From an uncultured Chloroflexia bacterium (lineage in GTDB: Bacteria > Chloroflexota > Limnocylindria > Limnocylindrales > CSP1-4), in the NCBI GenBank assembly GCA_963719145.1, contig CAVRAX010000001.1, forward strand, positions 1,017,729 through 1,081,728: a stretch of DNA of 64,000 bases, in the 5' to 3' direction. Position numbers and translations under genes: made by a program. The notes beneath the pieces were generated by a model. The model worked only from the letters and a program-made list of their open reading frames with translations, made no database searches and had not been told where the DNA came from. Positions 1-9,039 of this stretch are shown here, piece by piece (within the stretch, counting starts at the first letter, position 1; each line of letters begins with the position of its first letter).

Positions 1-1197
1 GGACAGGGGATCGCCGTGGACGAGGAAGAAGTCGGCCGGTCCGCCCTCCGCGATGGCGCCCGCTCCCGGCTCGCCGATGAGCTCACCGCCGCGCCAGGTC
101 GCGGCCGCCAGCGCCTCCCACGGCTCGAGGCCGGCCCCGACGAGCGCCTCTACCTCCCAGGCCAGCTGGTTGGCCCGGAGCGAGCCGCCTCCGAAGTCCG
201 TGCCGGTCGCGATTCGCACGCCGGCCGTGCGGGCGAGGGCGACGCTCGCCTCGGCCCGCTCGCGGCGAGCCGCGATGGCCACCCGCCCCGCATCGGCGGC
301 GAACCGCGCCAGGCTCGTCGTCGAGCCGAACGTCGCCCACGAGCGCATCACCGCGAGGGTGGAGACGAGGAAGGTGCCGCGGCGGGCCATCTCGGCGGCG
401 ACGTCACCGTCCAGGTCGAATCCATGCTCGATCGAATCGACGCCGCCCTCGACGGCGGCGACCGCCCCGTTCAGGCGGCCGGAGTGGGCAGTCACCGGCA
501 CGCCCCTGCCGTGGGCTGCCTCGACGACCCGGGCGACCTCGGCTGCCGACCACGGCGACGTCTCGGCGTCGGGCCCGTCCATGTACAGCTTCAGGAGATC
601 GACCCCGTCGTCGAGCTGGCCGATCGCGTTGGCGAGCAGCTCGTCCGCCGTCGCCGCCCCCACAGTGTGGGCAGCCTGGGGCAGGGTCCCCGCCCGATCG
701 AGCCAGGTCCCCGCGCAGCGAAGATAGGGGTGGTCGGAAAGCCCGGCCCAGCGCTCGCGAAGGCCGAGGCTGAGGGCCCGCATCCGTCCGTCGACGGGAT
801 CGACCAGTCGCGGCGCGCCGACGTCACGCGCCCAGCGGACCCCGGCCCGGGTGAGGAGCCGGGCGTTGCGCTCGGCGACACCGAGGAGTGCCTCCGGGGG
901 ATCGTCGATCCGCTCGATCCAGTGGGCGCCTCCCGGCAGCGTCACGTGGCTGTGGCCGTCGACCATGCCCGGGACGAAGGTGGCGCCCGACGCGTCGACG
1001 ATCTCGAGCCCGGACCGGGCGCCCGCCTTCCCTTCATCGTCTGACGGTCGGATCCAGCTGATCCGACCCTCCTCGACGAGGATGCTGACGCCGATCTGCA
1101 GGCGATCCGAACGGGCGTCGGCCAGCGCCCCGTCGCGGTAGATCGTCCGGCTCGCCGGCCTGCCCGGCGCGTCCCCGCTGGCCCGGCGCCCGGTCAC
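1..1197 (-). CDS. Amidohydrolase superfamily metal-dependent hydrolase (runs off window edge)
   Basis: Hand translation of the minus strand gives ...EIVDASGATFVPGMVDGHSHVTL..., the PG-x-x-D-x-H-x-H metal-binding motif. GTG start overlaps the upstream stop (GTGA). Absent from the ORF track because the stop lies outside the window. Confidence 0.85.
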   Translation of the reverse strand, partial: MTGRRASGDAPGRPASRTIYRDGALADARSDRLQIGVSILVEEGRISWIRPSDDEGKAGARSGLEIVDASGATFVPGMVDGHSHVTLPGGAHWIERIDDPPEALLGVAERNARLLTRAGVRWARDVGAPRLVDPVDGRMRALSLGLRERWAGLSDHPYLRCAGTWLDRAGTLPQAAHTVGAATADELLANAIGQLDDGVDLLKLYMDGPDAETSPWSAAEVARVVEAAHGRGVPVTAHSGRLNGAVAAVEGGVDSIEHGFDLDGDVAAEMARRGTFLVSTLAVMRSWATFGSTTSLARFAADAGRVAIAARRERAEASVALARTAGVRIATGTDFGGGSLRANQLAWEVEALVGAGLEPWEALAAATWRGGELIGEPGAGAIAEGGPADFFLVHGDPLS

Positions 1198-1574
1198 TGG
1201 ACGACGACCGTCCCGGTCATCGTCGGGTGGACCTCGCAGATGAAGTAGTACGTCCCCTTCGGAATCGGGCCCGCGGTCAGCACGATCGTCCGGGCCGAGA
1301 CGGGGTCGAAGCGGAAGATGACGTCGCCGTCGTACCCGGGCTTCGTCCGGATCGCGATGTTGTGCTGGTCGCCGTCCTTGTTGACGAAGACGAGCGGGAA
1401 TTCCCTGTCCGCAGGGAGGACGAGCTGGGACGTGTCGAACGTCCGGTTCTGGGCGCTGACGACGATCGCCCCGGGCGGATAGGTGGGTTCGGGCGTTGCG
1501 GCCCCGCCGCAGGCGCCGAGGGCGGCGATCGCGACCACGAGAGCGACCGTGGCTGCGAGCCGGCGGGCGGTCAT
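1194..1574 (-). CDS. Cupredoxin-domain lipoprotein
   Basis: Lipobox-like LGAC after a hydrophobic signal; type-1 copper ligands HN...CEVHPTM. Confidence 0.85.
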   Translation of the reverse strand: MTARRLAATVALVVAIAALGACGGAATPEPTYPPGAIVVSAQNRTFDTSQLVLPADREFPLVFVNKDGDQHNIAIRTKPGYDGDVIFRFDPVSARTIVLTAGPIPKGTYYFICEVHPTMTGTVVVQ

Positions 1575-1735
1575 GCGAGCGACCGACGGGCGGATGAGGG
1601 CAGGGAGGTCGGAGACGGGTGGCACGGGCGAACTGGTCTCCTTTTGGCGGGCCGTTTGGGGCTGGGGATTGCGAGGGCGCGCATCGCATCCTACCGTGGT
1701 CCGGAGCGATCGCAGCGAGGAGGGCGGGAGGCACG

Positions 1736-2287
1736 ATGGAGACACGACGCACGGAGCAACGCGGCATGCTGATCCTCGGCGCGCTGTTGCTCGTGGTGGG
1801 CGTCCTGGCCCTCGCCGGCCGGGGGCTCGGGATCAACGCGTTCGAGGTCGGCTGGCCGCTCTTCGTGATCGTGCCCGGCCTGCTGCTCCTGGCGTTGGCG
1901 ACCGGGATCGGCGGCCCGGGCGGCGCGGTCCTCGCCGCACCCGCCGGGATCGTGACCATGACCGGGGTCGTCCTCGCCGTCCAGGCCGCGACGGGGCTGT
2001 GGGCGACGTGGGCCTACGCCTGGGCGCTCGTGGCACCGGGCGGCGTCGGGGTCGGCCTGCTCGCCTACGGGGTCCTCACCGGCCAGCGCGAGCTCGTCCG
2101 GGCCGGGCTGCCGCTCCTGGGGGTGGGCCTCGGCCTGTTCCTCGCCTTCGGGATCTTCTTCGAGGGCGTGCTCGGGCTGAATGGAACGGCGATCGTCGGC
2201 GCCGAGACGCTGCTCGCCGGCGGCCTGGTCATCCTGGGCCTGATCATCCTGTTCGGCGGCCTCGTCGGACGGCGACCTGCGGGCTGA
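1736..2287 (+). CDS. Integral membrane protein (LiaI/LiaF-like TM repeats)
   Basis: About 6 hydrophobic segments, WPLFVIVPG motif, GGAGG RBS before ATG. Confidence 0.7.
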   Translation: METRRTEQRGMLILGALLLVVGVLALAGRGLGINAFEVGWPLFVIVPGLLLLALATGIGGPGGAVLAAPAGIVTMTGVVLAVQAATGLWATWAYAWALVAPGGVGVGLLAYGVLTGQRELVRAGLPLLGVGLGLFLAFGIFFEGVLGLNGTAIVGAETLLAGGLVILGLIILFGGLVGRRPAG

Positions 2288-2327: not shown

Positions 2328-3587
2328 TCAGCGGATCTCGACCACGCGATAGCGGACGGGACCCCGCGGCGTCCGGACCTCGACCTCGGCACCGGCGGTC
2401 GATCCGACGAGCGCGCCCCCGACGGGGGAGGAGACGCTGATCCGGCCGCTCGCCGGATCCGACTCCGTCGACCCGACGAGCGTGTAGGTGAGCGTCTCGC
2501 CGTCGTGCTCGACGACGACCGTCGAGCCGATGCGGGCCCGATCACCGCCTGATTCCTCGATGAGGACGGCGTTCCGGAGCCGCTCCTCGAGCAGCCGGAC
2601 CCGACCCTCGAGGAACGACTGCTCCTCGCGCGCCGCCTGGTACTCGGCGTTCTCCCGGAGGTCGCCGAGCTCCCGGGCGGCCTTGATCCGGGCGACGACG
2701 TCCGGCCGGCGAACGCGGGTCAGCTCGTCGAGCTCCGCGGTGAGACGCTCGAGGGCCTCCGCCGTCAGGGGCACCGGCTCTGGCCGGGCGGACGGCGGGA
2801 CGAGCGCCGTCGTCGCCCTCCGAGCCCGCGGCGCCGCGGTCGGACCCGCCGATCCCGGCCGCGCCGACTTCGGCGCTCGCGGGGTCGGCGAGCGGCGAAC
2901 AGTTCCCGTTCCCAGGGTCTCGACCCGAGCCCCGTCGGCGTCGCCGGCCGCGACCTCGACGACGTGGGTTGGCGGGGCGGGCGGCCCGGCCTCGTCCGGG
3001 CGGAGCGCGCCGGTGAGCCCGTGGACCTGGCGCTCGCCCGTGGGACGACGGAGGTTGGCCCACGGAAGCGGCAGGGCGCCCGCGGGCCGGTCCGCGGGCA
3101 GTGGCGGCCCGATCGTCGCGCCGAACGCCTCGAGCAGCCCGTCGAGGTATTCCTCCGGCGCGTCCGTCTCGGCGAACCAGATCCGTGTCCGCTCGATCCC
3201 GCGCAGGAGATGGAGCCAGTGGCCGTCGGGATGCGGGCGCCGGTCGCCGAGGACGTGGTGAGCGAGGGCGAGAACGCGGCCGCCGAGGCTGCCCCTGGTC
3301 GCGCCGGCGTAGACGACCGTCGCCCCCGGCAGCCAGAGCGATGCGAGCCTGGCAACGAGCGACTTCGAGGTCGGACGCTCCCCGTCGAGCCTCAGGCCGG
3401 GCAGGGTCTCGATCCATTTGCCGACGCGAATCAGCTCGATCGGCGCCGTCGACACCGGCTGGGCAAGCTCGACGACATAGATCCCCGGGGCCCGGGTCGT
3501 CAGCGGGCGACCCCAGAGCGCGGGGCCGTCGGGCCGCAGCCCGATCTCCCGGAACAGGTCGGCGGCGGTCGGGACCCCGTCTGCCAA
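2328..3587 (-). CDS. greA: GreA elongation factor fused to an N-terminal GIY-YIG-like domain
   Basis: C-terminal ~150 aa has ARELGDLRENAEY and ISVSSPVGGAL. N-terminal ~200 aa has PGIYVV...VYAGAT..SLGGRV...LPWAN. AGGAGG RBS before TTG at 3587. Confidence 0.9.
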   Translation of the reverse strand: MADGVPTAADLFREIGLRPDGPALWGRPLTTRAPGIYVVELAQPVSTAPIELIRVGKWIETLPGLRLDGERPTSKSLVARLASLWLPGATVVYAGATRGSLGGRVLALAHHVLGDRRPHPDGHWLHLLRGIERTRIWFAETDAPEEYLDGLLEAFGATIGPPLPADRPAGALPLPWANLRRPTGERQVHGLTGALRPDEAGPPAPPTHVVEVAAGDADGARVETLGTGTVRRSPTPRAPKSARPGSAGPTAAPRARRATTALVPPSARPEPVPLTAEALERLTAELDELTRVRRPDVVARIKAARELGDLRENAEYQAAREEQSFLEGRVRLLEERLRNAVLIEESGGDRARIGSTVVVEHDGETLTYTLVGSTESDPASGRISVSSPVGGALVGSTAGAEVEVRTPRGPVRYRVVEIR

Positions 3588-3683
3588 AGGCGTGCCTCCT
3601 CGATCCAGCCCGCCCACGGGTCACGCGACGGGTCGCGGTATCGTCGCATCATCGTTGCCGTTCGTCGCGAGGGTCGTCCAGCC

Positions 3684-5015
3684 ATGCGCCGCCTTCCGCT
3701 CGCCCTCGCCGCCGCCGCCGGCTCGATCGCGATCGCCTCGATCGTCGTCGCCGGCGGTCTCCTCGACGCGGCGCCGGCCGCCTCGCCGGGCGCTGCGGCC
3801 CGGGCCTCGGTCCCGGCGGCCACCGACGGGACCGCGGCACAGAGCGTCAGCCCGACCCCCACGCCGGCGTCGACGCCCGCTCGTCCCGCCAGCACCCCGT
3901 ACATCGCCAGGGGGGCCGACCGCCCAGGCGTCGCGGAAGCACTGCAGGCGGCCCTGGAGGCGGGTCGCGTGGCCCTCGCGGCGCCGGGCATCCAGGCCAG
4001 CGTGATCTTCCCCGACGGGCACCAGTGGACCGGCGTGGCGGGCGTCGCCGACCTGGCGACGGGGCGCCCGCTCACGCCCGACACGCCGTTCGCGATCGCC
4101 TCCGCCAGCAAGACCTTCCTGGCGACCGAGATCCTCCTCCTGGTGGATGAGGGGCGGCTGGCCCTCGACGATTCCGCGGCCGGCGACCTCCCGACGACGC
4201 TCGTGGGCGGCAAGGCGATCGACCCACGGATCACCATCCGGATGCTCCTCGATCACACGAGCGGGCTCGGTGACTACCTGGTCAGCCCGGCCCTCGACAA
4301 GGCCGTCCAGGCCGATCCGCGGGCGGTCTGGACGCCCGATCAGGCGCTCGCCTACGCCCGGCCACCGGTCGCCCCGCCGGGCAGGGGCTATCACTACGCG
4401 AACACCAACTACGTCCTCCTCGGTCTCATCGCCGAGCGGCTGACCGGGCGAACCCTGGCCGAGGAGTACCGGGCCCGATTCTTCGATCGGCTCGGACTCG
4501 CGAGCGCCAGCTACCAGGGGGCCGAGCCGCCGAAGGCGGAGCTCCCGACGGCCTACCGCTACAGCTCGACCCGGCTCAGCGCCAAGCCGACGGACGTGAC
4601 CGACGGGACCTCCATCCGGCCCTTCACCGCGATCACGACGGCCGCCGGCGCCGCGGGCTCGATCGCCATCAGCGCCCGCGACCTTGCCCACTGGGCCCGC
4701 GCGCTCTACGACGGCTACGTCCTGCCGCCGGACATGCTGGCCCTGATGCTCGCCGACGCCGCAGCCACCGAGACACTCGACCCGCCCTACCCGTACGGCC
4801 TGGGCGTTCAGGTCTACACGATCGACGATCGGGTCAGCTTCGGTCATTCGGGCCGCCTCGTCGGGGCTCGCAGCGTGGTCCGCTGGTTCCCCGAGGACGG
4901 GATCGGGATCGCCGTCGTCACGAACGAGAGCCGGTATGACGTGACGACGGTCGTCAGGCACCTCCTGGCGATCGCGGCCCCGCACGGGACCGGGCGGCCG
5001 GACCGGCCGATCTGA
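3684..5015 (+). CDS. Secreted serine hydrolase (beta-lactamase class C / D-Ala-D-Ala carboxypeptidase family)
   Basis: SxxK (ASASK), YxN (YANTNY), LLDHTSG and GHSG motifs; signal peptide and Pro/Thr linker. Confidence 0.88.
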   Translation: MRRLPLALAAAAGSIAIASIVVAGGLLDAAPAASPGAAARASVPAATDGTAAQSVSPTPTPASTPARPASTPYIARGADRPGVAEALQAALEAGRVALAAPGIQASVIFPDGHQWTGVAGVADLATGRPLTPDTPFAIASASKTFLATEILLLVDEGRLALDDSAAGDLPTTLVGGKAIDPRITIRMLLDHTSGLGDYLVSPALDKAVQADPRAVWTPDQALAYARPPVAPPGRGYHYANTNYVLLGLIAERLTGRTLAEEYRARFFDRLGLASASYQGAEPPKAELPTAYRYSSTRLSAKPTDVTDGTSIRPFTAITTAAGAAGSIAISARDLAHWARALYDGYVLPPDMLALMLADAAATETLDPPYPYGLGVQVYTIDDRVSFGHSGRLVGARSVVRWFPEDGIGIAVVTNESRYDVTTVVRHLLAIAAPHGTGRPDRPI

Positions 5016-5668: not shown

Positions 5669-5802
5669 CGCCCGGCAGCCGTCCCTCGCCCGTCGAGTCA
5701 TCGATCCCTGACCTGACGCGCCTGTCTCCGACGCGGCTCCCCGCGCTCGCGAGGGCACGACTCCGCAGCGCGGCCTTGTCCGAGCCCGGGTCACGGCGTA
5801 TT

Positions 5803-5820
5803 TTCAACCCGATGGTTGAA
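5803..5820. promoter_or_regulatory. Palindromic operator TTCAACC-N4-GGTTGAA overlapping the ArsR start codon
   Basis: AT-rich inverted repeat over ATG 5812; same CAACC-N4-GGTTG core as 54351-54370. Confidence 0.75.
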
Positions 5821-6147
5821 TATTCGAGTCGTGGATTGGATGCGACCTACCGGGCCCTGGCCCATCCGGTTCGTCGGGGCATGGTCGAGCGCCTCCGCGG
5901 CGGGGACGCCGGCGTCACCGGCCTGGCGGCGGGCTTCGGGATCTCGCTCGCCGCGGCCTCGAAGCACATCAAGGTCCTCGAAGCCGCAGGCCTCGTCCGC
6001 CGGACAATCTCCGGTCGCGAGCACCACCTGGCGCTCGACGTCGAGCCGCTCTCGGAGGCGGCCGCCTGGATCGCGCGGTCGACGGGCTTCTGGGCGGGAC
6101 GGCTGGATGCGCTCGAGGCGGTCCTGCGGGATCGGGACTCGTCGTGA
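5812..6147 (+). CDS. ArsR/SmtB family regulator
   Basis: ALAHPVRR...SKHIKVLEAAGLV...GR wHTH; FW..RLDAL tail typical of SRPBCC-linked ArsR. Confidence 0.9.
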   Translation: MVEYSSRGLDATYRALAHPVRRGMVERLRGGDAGVTGLAAGFGISLAAASKHIKVLEAAGLVRRTISGREHHLALDVEPLSEAAAWIARSTGFWAGRLDALEAVLRDRDSS

Positions 6148-6617
6148 CCGAGCCCGGCGCGGACGGCGCGACGGTCGCCCGGATCGAGCGGCTCCTCCAG
6201 GCGCCGCCGGAGGTCGTCTATCGGGCCTGGACCGACCCGCTGATCCTGGGCCGCTGGATGTCGGCGTTCGGACGGGCCGAGGTCGCCGCGGACGTCCGCG
6301 TCGGTGGCCGGCTCCATGTCGCCATGGTCGACGACGACGCCCGGATCGAGCATGAAGGCGAGTTCCTCGTGCTCGATCCGCCGAGCCGTCTCTCGTTCAC
6401 CTGGCGCTCGCCGTACACGGGGCCGGAACCGAGCGTGGTGACCGTCGAGCTCACCCCGCGCGGGGCGGGGACCCGGTTGGTCCTCACCCATGAACGCCTG
6501 CCCGGCGAGGTCGTGGCGTCGCACCAGGGTGGCTGGGGTCGGATGGTCGATCGGCTGACAGACCTGCTCGGCGCTGGGGCCGGGCCGGCGGCGGCAGCGG
6601 AGGAGGTGGCCCGATGA
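6144..6617 (+). CDS. SRPBCC/AHSA1-like (START) domain protein
   Basis: APPEVVYRAWTDP...RLSFTW...HQGGW. Confidence 0.88.
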   Translation: MTEPGADGATVARIERLLQAPPEVVYRAWTDPLILGRWMSAFGRAEVAADVRVGGRLHVAMVDDDARIEHEGEFLVLDPPSRLSFTWRSPYTGPEPSVVTVELTPRGAGTRLVLTHERLPGEVVASHQGGWGRMVDRLTDLLGAGAGPAAAAEEVAR

Positions 6618-7069
6618 GCAGCGTCGACATCGAGACGGAGGTCGTCATCGATCGCCCGCGGGCCGAGGTCGCGGCGTTCGCCGCCGACCCCGACAACGTG
6701 ACCCGCTGGTACAGCAACATCAAGTCGGTCGAGTGGCGGACGCCACCGCCGGCGGCGGTCGGCTCGCGGATCGCCTTTGTGGCCCGCTTCCTCGGGCGGA
6801 CCCTGGCCTACGTCTACGAGGTCCGCGACGTCGTTCCCGGCGAGCGATTCGTGATGAGCACCGCCGACGGCCCCTTCGCCATGGAGACGACGTACACCTG
6901 GCGGGACGAGCCCGGCGGGGCAACGCGGATGACCCTCCGCAACCGCGGCGAACCGTCCGGGTTCTCGGCCGTCGCCGCGCCGCTCATGGCCGGCGCGATG
7001 CGCCGGGCGAACCGGCAGGACCTGGCTCGGCTGAAGACCCTCCTGGAGGCCTCCGCCCCCGGATCCTGA
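6614..7069 (+). CDS. SRPBCC (polyketide cyclase/dehydrase-like) protein
   Basis: IDRPRAEVAAFAADPDN..RWY...DLARLKTLLE; ATGA coupling. Confidence 0.85.
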   Translation: MSSVDIETEVVIDRPRAEVAAFAADPDNVTRWYSNIKSVEWRTPPPAAVGSRIAFVARFLGRTLAYVYEVRDVVPGERFVMSTADGPFAMETTYTWRDEPGGATRMTLRNRGEPSGFSAVAAPLMAGAMRRANRQDLARLKTLLEASAPGS

Positions 7070-7114: not shown

Positions 7115-8374
7115 TCAGCGCCGCGAGCCGCTCCGGGATCGCGACCTGCCCGGGCTTCGGTGAGCGTAGTGGTGGGTCCGCACCGGTCGGGCCGCGAGGG
7201 GCCCGCGGAGCGGCTGCGGCTCGGCGTTTCGATCCGGCACGAAGCCCTCCTCGACGGTCCACGGGATCGCCTGTTTCAGGAGGCGCTGGACGCCCCGGAG
7301 GAGGTCGGCCTCGTCGATCGAGACGAGGCTCACCGCGTCCCCGGTGGCGCCGGCCCGCCCGGTCCGGCCGATCCGGTGGATGTAGTCCATCGGCTCCCAC
7401 GGCAGCTCGAAGTTCACGACGTGGGGGAGATCCTCGATGTCGAGCCCGCGGGCGGCGACATCCGTCGCCACGAGGACCCGGATCTCGCCGCTCTTGAAGC
7501 TCTCGAGGGCGCGGGTCCGTTCCGGCTGGCTCCGATCGGAGTGGATCGCCACGGCCTCCAGGCCGCGCCGGTCCAGGTAGGTCGCGAGGCGTGATGCCCC
7601 GATCTTGGTCCTGGTGAAGACGAGGACCTGGCGCCAGTCGTGGCGGGCGACGAGGTGGGCCAGGAGCGCCTCCTTGCGGTCCCGGTCGACCGGGTAGACG
7701 AGCTGCCGTACGGTCTCGACGGCCGTGTTCCGTGGCGCGACCTCGACCGTTGCCGGGTTGCGGAGGATGGTCCCCGACAGGCGCCGGATGTCGTCCGAGA
7801 AGGTCGCCGAGAACATCAGGTTCTGGCGCCGGGGCGGGAGGAGGCCGATGATCCGCTGGATGTCCGGCAGGAAGCCCATGTCGAGCATCCGGTCCGCCTC
7901 GTCGAGGACGAGGATCTCGACCTGGCCCAGGTTGACGCCCTTCTGCCCGACGTGGTCGAGCAGTCGCCCCGGCGTCGCGACGAGGATCTCGATGCCGGCC
8001 CGAAGGGCCTTCGTCTGGGGCTCGATCGGGACCCCGCCGTAGACGACCGTCGAGCGGAGGGGGACCGTCCGGCCGTAGGTCCGGACGCTCTCGTCGACCT
8101 GCATCGCGAGCTCCCGCGTCGGGACGACGATGAGGACCCGGACCGGGTGGCGGGCCGGCGAGAAGGAGGTGTTCGCGTGGTGGCGGAGGCGATCCAGGAT
8201 CGGCAGGACGAACGCGGCCGTCTTGCCGGTCCCGGTCTGGGCGGCGGCGAGGACGTCGCGGCCGGTGAGGACGAGGGGGATCGCGACCGCCTGGACGGGC
8301 GTTGGCTCAACGTAGCCCTCGTCGGCCACCATGCCGACGAGATCAGCCGACAGGCCGAGCAATTCGAAGGTCAA
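7115..8374 (-). CDS. rhlE: DEAD-box RNA helicase, RhlE-like
   Basis: Q motif, [34 protein letters not shown]. Confidence 0.93.
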   Translation of the reverse strand: MTFELLGLSADLVGMVADEGYVEPTPVQAVAIPLVLTGRDVLAAAQTGTGKTAAFVLPILDRLRHHANTSFSPARHPVRVLIVVPTRELAMQVDESVRTYGRTVPLRSTVVYGGVPIEPQTKALRAGIEILVATPGRLLDHVGQKGVNLGQVEILVLDEADRMLDMGFLPDIQRIIGLLPPRRQNLMFSATFSDDIRRLSGTILRNPATVEVAPRNTAVETVRQLVYPVDRDRKEALLAHLVARHDWRQVLVFTRTKIGASRLATYLDRRGLEAVAIHSDRSQPERTRALESFKSGEIRVLVATDVAARGLDIEDLPHVVNFELPWEPMDYIHRIGRTGRAGATGDAVSLVSIDEADLLRGVQRLLKQAIPWTVEEGFVPDRNAEPQPLRGPLAARPVRTHHYAHRSPGRSRSRSGSRR

Positions 8375-8493
8375 ATTCACTCCAGGTTGTGAGCGGCCGC
8401 GGTCGCGCGCGACGGCGCTGCGACATTCCGCAGGCGTGCCGAGGATAGCCGATCGGCGCCGAACGGCCCCGCGCTCGCGCCTACGATGGCTCG

Positions 8494-9039
8494 GTGAGCG
8501 GGCGGACGACGAGGGCGACCGAGGCCCTGGCGAAGGCCGGGATCCCGCATCAGCTCCACGAGTACGAGCCTCCAGAGCGCCTCGGCGCCGCGCGCGACGC
8601 CCGGCCGGCATACGGTCGCGAGGCGGCCGCAGCGCTCGGGGTGGGGGAGGACCGGGTCTTCAAGACGCTGGTCGCCCGCGTCGACGGGCGGTTCGTCCTC
8701 GCCATCGTGCCGGTCGCCGGATCCCTGGACCTGAAGGCGCTTGCCGCTGCGGTCGGCGGCCGTCGCGCCGAGCTCGCCGCCTCCGTCGAGGCCGAGCGGG
8801 CGACGGGCTATGTCGTCGGCGGGATCAGCCCGTTCGGCGGCCGGCGCGCGTTGACGGCCGTCGTCGATGGCTCGGCCATGGACCACCCGACCGTCCTCGT
8901 CTCGGCCGGCCGCCGTGGGCTCCAGCTCGAGCTCAGGCCGAGCGATCTGGTTCGCGCCTGCGAGGCGCGGGTCGCCCCGATCTCCAGGCCGGGTCGTCCG
9001 GGGCGAGCTCTAAACAGCAAGACGACTTCCGAAAAGTGA
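8494..9039 (+). CDS. ybaK: Cys-tRNA(Pro) deacylase, YbaK/EbsC family
   Basis: VFKTLV, TGYVVGGISPFG, VSAGRRG motifs. Confidence 0.9.
   Translation: MSGRTTRATEALAKAGIPHQLHEYEPPERLGAARDARPAYGREAAAALGVGEDRVFKTLVARVDGRFVLAIVPVAGSLDLKALAAAVGGRRAELAASVEAERATGYVVGGISPFGGRRALTAVVDGSAMDHPTVLVSAGRRGLQLELRPSDLVRACEARVAPISRPGRPGRALNSKTTSEK

Follow-up and report, generated by a model that had tools for sequence, protein, structure and literature searches.

A GreA paralog with a divergent GIY-YIG-type N-terminal domain in one family of Limnocylindria

In a 64,000-nucleotide stretch of DNA from an uncultured Chloroflexia bacterium (GTDB lineage Bacteria; Chloroflexota; Limnocylindria; Limnocylindrales; CSP1-4; assembly GCA_963719145.1, contig CAVRAX010000001.1, forward-strand positions 1,017,729 to 1,081,728; hereafter the window), one minus-strand gene at 2328..3587 joins an N-terminal domain (N-domain, ND) of nuclease fold to a complete GreA. 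Sequence comparisons and the predicted structure indicate that ND is a divergent GIY-YIG domain from the UvrC/Cho side of the superfamily. The gene occurs in single copy across one bacterial family, and comparison with a second greA in the same genome identifies it as a GreA paralog beside the housekeeping GreA. Residues typical of the catalytic set are replaced in nearly all fused forms, while the fold is kept and a new conserved surface has appeared. We consider it probable that the GreA part, seated in the secondary channel of RNA polymerase (RNAP), tethers a catalytically decayed or repurposed nuclease-fold module near the polymerase.

Results

Gene extent and conservation of the fusion

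The features of the gene are listed below; residue numbers of the fusion protein count from the TTG start at 3587.

2328..3587, minus strand: whole ND-tether-GreA gene, 419 amino acids plus stop, TTG start (open reading frame (ORF) list, guanine-plus-cytosine (GC) content at third codon positions (GC3), homolog length)
3595..3600, minus strand: Shine-Dalgarno-like AGGAGG, 7 nucleotides ahead of the TTG start (seen in the sequence itself; putative function)
3003..3587, minus strand: ND, residues 1-195, divergent GIY-YIG fold (AlphaFold2 (AF2), VIA-align, PDB sequence search, hhalign)
3144..3146, minus strand: codon CTC of Leu148, which occupies the place of the one acidic residue that is near-invariant in the family, the putative metal-binding Glu
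2778..3002, minus strand: tether, residues 196-270, 75 amino acids, Ala/Pro/Arg-rich, predicted disordered, net charge +4
2565..2774, minus strand: GreA N-terminal coiled-coil domain (Pfam PF03449, E 1.4e-26), with tip residues D309 (2661-2663) and E312 (2652-2654)
2334..2543, minus strand: GreA/GreB C-terminal globular domain (Pfam PF01272, E 1.4e-21)

According to the ORF list and its translation, the frame starts at 3617 (GTG) or 3587 (TTG) and stops at 2328-2330; the GTG at 3617 is an alternative start that would add 10 amino acids. Because AGGAGG precedes the TTG and the resulting 419 residues match the 417 of the homolog P0002, with which ND shares 97% identity, 2328-3587 is the likely extent of the gene. 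A further in-frame GTG at 2772..2774 (minus strand) lies one residue ahead of the Pfam GreA N-domain match and could yield a GreA-only isoform.

The fusion recurs well beyond this assembly. A search with ND (residues 1-215) retrieved 866 homologs in proteins of 230-734 amino acids; 119 of the 120 listed homologs carry both GreA Pfam domains, and the remaining one has the GreA N-domain only. Where the source names them, these homologs are GreA proteins of Chloroflexota or of Candidatus Limnocylindrales metagenome-assembled genomes. In a class sample of 151 genomes, ND was found in 44/44 genomes of the window's own family, spanning 13 genera at 41-73% identity and without internal stops, and in 2/106 genomes of other families, one of them at E 9.7e-4. 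Across the phylum, a GreA-free profile of ND and 26 stand-alone relatives (A2) detected ND in 9/201 genomes, eight of which, the window's own genome included, belong to the window's family. Thus, apart from rare matches elsewhere, the fusion is confined in the sampled genomes to one family of the class.

The same genome also encodes a canonical GreA of 154 amino acids, the separate normal copy for which the original prediction had asked; it is identical to the fused GreA part at 66/149 positions (44%). A GreA C-domain match occurs in 45/46 family genomes, and two or more such matches occur in 36/46.

With so wide a recurrence, we rejected assembly or read-through as the origin of the ORF. An artefact could take the form of two genes merged by an assembly or frame error, or of a spurious upstream extension of an ordinary GreA whose true start is the GTG at 2774. 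The GC content of the window is about 74%, so long spurious ORFs are to be expected, and this GTG does sit right before the GreA domain; however, inspection of the sequence found no Shine-Dalgarno motif preceding it. In almost every one of the 44 family genomes, which were assembled independently, ND lies in a continuous frame of at least 390 amino acids, and it is preserved across genera without stops. GC3 in the fusion frame is 0.77-0.97 along the entire ORF, with the usual high/low/very-high pattern over the codon positions that marks coding sequence, and ND is modelled with a mean predicted local distance difference test (pLDDT) score of 94.9. Taken together, these data make an artefact extremely improbable.

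The GreA module and its tether

Residues 272-418 constitute a complete GreA, both Gre domains being contained in the C-terminal 149 residues. PF03449 (GreA_GreB_N) scores 92.9 bits against a cut-off of 24.5 over profile positions 1-70 of 71, and PF01272 (GreA_GreB) scores 76.7 bits against 26.9. The NCBIfam GreA models NF001263 (157 against a cut-off of 145) and TIGR01462 (155.9 against 139) are both exceeded, and the protein scores under the cut-offs of the NCBIfam GreB models. A profile that includes the GreA parts (A1) matches E. coli GreA (PDB 1GRJ) at E 1e-36, and the coiled-coil helices lie at residues 276-306 and 314-338 of the full-length AF2 model. By these family scores, the fused module is a member of the GreA transcript cleavage factors.

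The acidic tip GDLRENAEY is present. In an alignment of fused homologs (A3), G308, D309, L310, E312, N313 and Y316 are invariant in 60/60 sequences, and conservation of the tip across 140 fused homologs is at least 90%. We take the tip Asp and Glu to be the equivalents of E. coli GreA D41 and E44. In characterised Gre factors, the globular domain of the PF01272 type is the RNAP-binding domain. Since the NCBIfam GreA cut-offs are exceeded and D309 and E312 are invariant in the 60 aligned sequences, Gre function is probably retained in the fusion.

The tether corresponds to what had been described as a basic Pro/Ala linker. Over 147 fused homologs it measures 41-130 amino acids (median 76), consists of 21% Ala, 17% Pro and 15% Arg, and is always net positive (+1 to +22). 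In the full-length AF2 model, segments spanning residues 223-262 have a pLDDT below 50 and the predicted template modelling score (pTM) is 0.54; ND and GreA, each confidently modelled, therefore have no fixed mutual arrangement. Two tether motifs are semi-conserved, PPGDADGAR..RGTGTVRR (residues ~205-232) and VPPSAR directly before GreA (~262-268). At these motifs the pLDDT is 46-82, and they could be short linear binding motifs.

Fold of the N-domain

The motifs named in the original prediction were all located in the sequence. In ND these are G35-I-Y37, Y93-A-G95, S100-L..R104, PEEYLDGLL (144-152) and P175-W-A-N178. The canonical order of the superfamily is kept in ND and its relatives (PGVY, vLYIG..SL..R, E-x-x-L-L, P-F/W-A-N), with one insertion of about 50 amino acids and two helices between the GIY strand and the YIG strand, and another of about 20 amino acids ahead of P175-W-A-N178.

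The isolated ND model (pTM 0.88) was compared exhaustively with 48,161 solved chains using VIA-align. The best eight matches are listed below; every Z score is under 8, a range in which, by the tool's own warning, common arrangements can also score.

T4 endonuclease II (2wsh): Z 7.2, 107 residues aligned
UvrC GIY-YIG domain (1ycz): Z 6.2, root-mean-square deviation 2.3 A, 81/89 residues; ends at model residue 179 / chain residue 89
Plant glutaredoxin N-domain (2lwf): Z 5.8
I-TevI (1ln0): Z 5.5
R.Eco29kI (3mx4): Z 5.3
PD-T4-3 (9u75): Z 3.9
An unrelated isomerase: Z 3.8
R.Hpy188I (3oqg): Z 3.7

Seven of the eight are GIY-YIG nucleases, with 2lwf and 9u75 counted among them. For one small superfamily to fill seven of the best eight places is hard to get by chance.

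Sequence profiles point the same way. Against PDB sequences, A1 retrieved Gre-family proteins only, Gfh1 and Rnk among them; A2 retrieved just UvrC (E 0.35) and endonuclease II (EndoII; E 1.4) at E <=10, both aligned on YIGk..sLr.RV. An hhalign comparison of A2 with a profile of 24 Chloroflexota UvrC N-domains (A4) gave a probability of 94.8% and E 5e-8, over 25 columns only, and a comparison with the genome's own UvrC gave 81.7%; Y93 and R104 fall on the YVG..R motif of UvrC. The nearest protein-language-model neighbours of ND are unnamed clusters, mostly of Actinomycetota, followed by GIY-YIG clusters.

Pfam and NCBIfam scans gave no match to the window's own ND at E <=1 and detected no ligand-binding family in it, and neither this ND nor its 27 relatives reached the gathering score of the Pfam GIY-YIG models (PF01541, PF20815). 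Among the relatives, sub-threshold matches were obtained to Pfam GIY_YIG_2 (8/27) and GIY-YIG (5/27), the best at 18 and 17.4 bits against about 22.5; NCBIfam returned weak uvrC matches in 8/27 and weak matches to 'DEDD exonuclease domain-containing protein' (PRK07883 series) in 3/27. The proposed structural and profile check of ND was thus borne out by the profiles and VIA-align but not by Foldseek, which found no ND match in the PDB at E <=0.001 (best R.Eco29kI, E 0.22) and, together with the low Z range, counts against the assignment. The agreement of VIA-align, the A2 matches in the PDB and hhalign nevertheless places ND with the GIY-YIG domains. Neither outcome that would have refuted the original prediction, an N-domain unlike GIY-YIG or a fusion restricted to this assembly, was observed.

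Relatives of the N-domain and loss of the catalytic residues

A search of 1.84 billion cluster representatives identified 770 ND-family clusters, 490 of them at E <=1e-10. Many of these relatives are stand-alone proteins of about 200 amino acids, in which Y37, Y93, R104, H119, E148 and N178 (the hexad, in the numbering of the window protein) are nearly invariant; N178 is present in 19/20. Judging from these residues, the parent family apparently comprises active nucleases; it has no Pfam or NCBIfam model of its own.

Some relatives carry extensions. P0213, P0223, P0231, P0241, P0250, P0256, P0260 and P0266 combine an intact hexad with a recurrent C-terminal module of about 90 amino acids (GRIRIP..K.LLP...WDPR.GPDRERSGVL); a second recurrent module, AVEAA.WL..AGLLRDS..RPG.PLR.LLR.G.I, occurs at either end of P0180, P0167, P0230, P0187 and P0193; and P0268 and P0240 have a third, winged-helix-like tail. 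No Pfam match was obtained in these extensions, and the three modules appear to be unnamed. Our impression from their sequences is of DNA-binding or targeting parts, winged-helix-like or barrel-like. In P0232 (871 amino acids), an intact-hexad ND forms the C-terminus of a superfamily 1 helicase (AAA_11/AAA_12, UvrD_C_2), an arrangement that hints at a parent nuclease acting on DNA together with a helicase.

In the fused proteins the hexad is rarely complete. Here 'close fused' denotes the 120 listed homologs of the window protein and 'divergent fused' denotes 26 representatives. Intact hexads are distributed as follows.

Stand-alone forms: 17/20
Other architectures: 23/39
Divergent GreA-fused representatives: 2/26
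Close fused homologs: 0/120

E148 is the sole acidic residue among the near-invariant columns of A2, and Glu is found there in 19/20 stand-alone and 19/26 divergent fused proteins but in 0/120 close fused ones (111 Leu, 8 Phe, 1 Gln). Since the comparison reads APEEY[E/L]DALLDAF, this is a plain substitution without an alignment shift. The window ND therefore appears to lack the metal-binding Glu of GIY-YIG nucleases and to have Leu148 in its place; the doubt that the original prediction had raised over this Glu was well placed. The other five residues are mostly kept in the close fused homologs (Y37 in 118/120, Y93 in 104/120, R104 in 119/120, H119 in 120/120 and N178 in 110/120). In the divergent fused forms, Y37 is replaced by Phe, Val, Leu or Ala in 16/26, H119 is lost in 18/26, and N178 is lost in 9/26.

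In a FastTree tree built without the six hexad columns, a GreA-type clade holds 162 sequences, namely 145/147 fused proteins and 17 apparent fragments or miscalls with fused-type markers. The hexad is full in 1/162 inside this clade versus 41/44 outside, figures to be read with the clade's support of only 60, its choice to fit the fused label and the non-independence of kin. The fused rows require at least 3 state changes at R104 and minima of 6-18 at each of the other five positions, which indicates that the non-canonical states arose several times.

A different set of residues has become fixed in the fusion. E40, R135, W137, T141, E145, E146 and D149 are near-invariant in fused forms, whereas stand-alone forms vary at these positions, all of which lie around the old active site; E145 is found in 117 and E146 in all 120 of the close fused homologs. 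The window subclade also has Q187 in place of the family's Lys.

Discussion

Probable mechanism: a Gre module on RNAP with a decayed nuclease fold

The globular Gre domain of the fusion would dock on the rim of the RNAP secondary channel, as in E. coli GreA, and, as its family membership suggests, the coiled coil would bring the Asp/Glu tip to the active site and stimulate cleavage of backtracked RNA. The disordered positive tether of about 75 residues would link the GreA N-terminus to the ND of about 195 residues. ND descends from the apparently active nuclease family described above. Its canonical one-metal set has decayed differently in different sublineages of the fused clade, here by the change of Glu148 to Leu, while the clade-specific surface of E40, R135, W137, T141, E145, E146 and D149 has arisen beside the old active site. 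A pseudo-enzyme would be expected to show just this pattern: sublineages differ in the catalytic residues that they lost, the fold is retained, and a new surface is conserved. ND would then be a binding module, non-catalytic or at least non-canonical, kept close to the polymerase by GreA. Its target would most likely be a partner or a feature of nucleic acid present at stalled or backtracked complexes, and the paralog would thus serve a specialised clientele alongside the housekeeping GreA. This probable mechanism fits the earlier suggestion of a possibly inactive nuclease tethered to RNAP.

Several points weigh against the decay of ND. The identity of E148 as the catalytic Glu is deduced from the E-x-x-L-L spacing, from the lack of any other conserved acidic residue and from secondary structure, and the confident hhalign columns cover just the YIG-Arg segment. 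(An hhalign run extended at very low mact produced low-confidence columns past that segment, which were not used for mapping the Glu.) Five of the six residues of the hexad (YYRH-N) persist in the window subclade, and E145 and E146, one helical turn before position 148 and nearly invariant when fused, could take over metal binding. P0142 and P0145 are fused, have the full hexad and stand outside the GreA-type clade, so that some fusions may be active nucleases. No clear difference was found in the net charge of ND between fused and stand-alone forms, and the inactivity of ND is something that we infer from its residues alone.

Some of these points would suit an active nuclease tethered to RNAP, an alternative that we regard as rather unlikely. 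Its metal site would have been remodelled, with E40, E145, E146 and D149 standing in for E148, and GreA would deliver ND to stalled RNAP, where it would nick DNA in the manner of UvrC and Cho or cut RNA extruded via the secondary channel. The retention of most of Y37, Y93, R104, H119 and N178 in the window subclade, the near-invariant E145 and E146 within three residues of the lost Glu, and the full hexad of two fused proteins are consistent with such an enzyme. So are the parent family, which looks like one of genuine nucleases attached to DNA-targeting modules and a helicase, and a published precedent, in the part of that paper covered here, for nuclease domains joined to the GreA/B C-domain (PMC8195603). 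The divergent fused forms, however, have lost Y37 (16/26), H119 (18/26) and N178 (9/26) and yet keep both the fold and the new surface, so that whatever function is conserved in the fusion can dispense with the canonical chemistry. Fused forms that retain E148 likewise conserve E145, E146 and D149, which were therefore not acquired as its replacements. The lack of repair genes in the vicinity argues in the same direction.

A conserved acidic cluster on ND (E40, E145, E146, D149) is matched by the conserved basic tether with its semi-conserved motif, which would fit another reading: rather than acting on nucleic acid, ND could be a regulatory or autoinhibitory head that controls the Gre module, for example by folding onto the tether or coiled coil or by binding a signal. 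The paralog would then be a conditional competitor of the canonical GreA for the secondary channel, similar to Gfh1 or Rnk. A canonical GreA does coexist in the genome, and secondary-channel competitors homologous to Gre are known, Gfh1 and Rnk being among the A1 matches in the PDB. On the other hand, the catalytic tip D309/E312 is invariant, and Gfh1-type inhibitors differ from the fusion in the conservation of this tip. The full-length model (pTM 0.54) gave no confident docking of ND on GreA, a weak test, and the Pfam and NCBIfam scans offered ND no ligand-binding family. On balance, a regulatory head seems very unlikely.

The tethering of a decayed or repurposed module by GreA remains the reading we prefer, and the two exceptional fusions suggest how it may have begun. 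The position of P0142 and P0145 outside the clade, with the hexad intact, suggests that the fusion started from a competent nuclease. In a more speculative and distinctly unlikely extension, the fusion would have begun as a polymerase-targeted, active nuclease similar to UvrC, as which P0142 and P0145 may still act, and the window lineage would have turned ND into a non-cutting sensor that steers Gre to RNAPs stalled at particular DNA or RNA structures. If so, the sensor would provide an Mfd-independent route from transcription rescue to DNA processing.

Most Gre factors are small and stand alone, whereas in this case a second GreA with a nuclease-fold domain attached is maintained across a whole bacterial family. 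If ND binds DNA or RNA features at stalled RNAP, the fusion would represent a new way of specialising secondary-channel factors and a natural, nuclease-derived, tethered pseudo-enzyme; if ND still cuts, the fusion would couple the arrest of transcription to incision of nucleic acid in a new way.

Comparison with known systems

The C-terminal 149 amino acids of the fusion share both Gre domains and the D..E tip with E. coli GreA (1GRJ; NF001263 / TIGR01462), which lacks the ~270 extra N-terminal residues of ND and tether. ND has the fold of the UvrC/Cho GIY-YIG domain (1YCZ, 1YD6) and its YIGk..sLr.RV segment, with PGVY, E-x-x-L-L and P-x-x-N in the same order; unlike that domain, it has two insertions, an extra N-terminal helix and strand, and Leu in place of Glu. 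The UvrB-binding, C-terminal endonuclease and helix-hairpin-helix domains of UvrC are also missing from the fusion, in which Pfam and NCBIfam detect GreA domains only. T4 EndoII (2WSH) is the best structural match to ND and R.Eco29kI (3MX4) the best Foldseek match, and both are GIY-YIG enzymes with inserted elements; they are only 11-12% identical to ND, however, and are free-standing, active DNA nucleases unlinked to RNAP.

Long GreA fusions occur in Chlamydia and spirochaetes (NF004969, 'transcript cleavage factor/unknown domain fusion protein', and NF011309). As in the present protein, GreA forms the C-terminus of a far longer polypeptide; only the GreA part matches these models (55 against a cut-off of 697, and 88.6 against 714), and their N-terminal regions are unrelated to ND.

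The nearest published precedent found, within the part of the paper covered here, is a set of conflict systems in which a lone GreA/B C-domain is flanked by tetratricopeptide repeats (TPR) and PIN, and in which the N-terminal effectors vary, DNases being among them (Kaur, Iyer, Burroughs, Aravind, eLife 2021, PMC8195603). In that part of the source, nuclease domains (restriction endonuclease (REase), HNH, PIN) joined to the Gre-type RNAP-binding domain are predicted to act on polymerase complexes, and the genes are described as rapidly evolving defence genes (PMC8195603). The joining of a nuclease or nuclease-fold domain to a Gre-type domain is common to both; unlike those systems as described there, the fusion has a complete GreA with its tip and a GIY-YIG-type domain, and is single-copy and family-wide. 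Neither TPR nor PIN was found in the fusion at Pfam E <=1; a divergent PIN might escape Pfam, yet no residues remain after the Gre C-domain. A literature search found no description of GreA with GIY-YIG or of GreA with Limnocylindria, the architecture tables that supplement PMC8195603, which could list related fusions, being outside the search. The ND-tether-GreA arrangement thus seems to be undescribed.

Genomic context

The nearest neighbours of the fusion gene in the window are the following.

1194..1745, minus strand: cupredoxin-like protein (Pfam Cupredoxin_1, E 8e-9), downstream and on the same strand as the fusion gene
1619/1736..2287, plus strand: Gly/Leu/Val-rich membrane-protein ORF without a Pfam match, convergent, between the cupredoxin and fusion genes
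3684..5015, plus strand: beta-lactamase-family serine hydrolase (PF00144, E 2.5e-56) with an N-terminal signal- or anchor-like segment, divergent

The membrane-protein ORF overlaps the cupredoxin ORF if its longer start is taken, and the hydrolase gene begins 96 nucleotides from the TTG of the fusion gene. An amidohydrolase gene is also among the neighbours. At nine related loci, synteny is only partial: the divergent beta-lactamase-family hydrolase recurs in 5/9 and the downstream amidohydrolase in 2/9. Neither the window nor these nine loci contain a repair or transcription partner or a conserved operon near the fusion gene. Mfd and a full UvrC are encoded elsewhere in the genome, and the idea that the fusion substitutes for a missing Mfd or UvrC was rejected because both are present. 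The suggested transcription-repair link, or damage sensor, accordingly finds no support in a neighbourhood of hydrolase, membrane-protein, cupredoxin and amidohydrolase genes.

Further along the window, an ArsR/HTH_20 regulator gene is followed by two SRPBCC genes (AHSA1 / Polyketide_cyc2) with overlapping stops and starts, forming a small operon-like group at 5776..7069 (plus strand). A DEAD-box helicase encoded at 7115..8611 (minus strand) is extended at either end by an Arg/Ser-rich segment.

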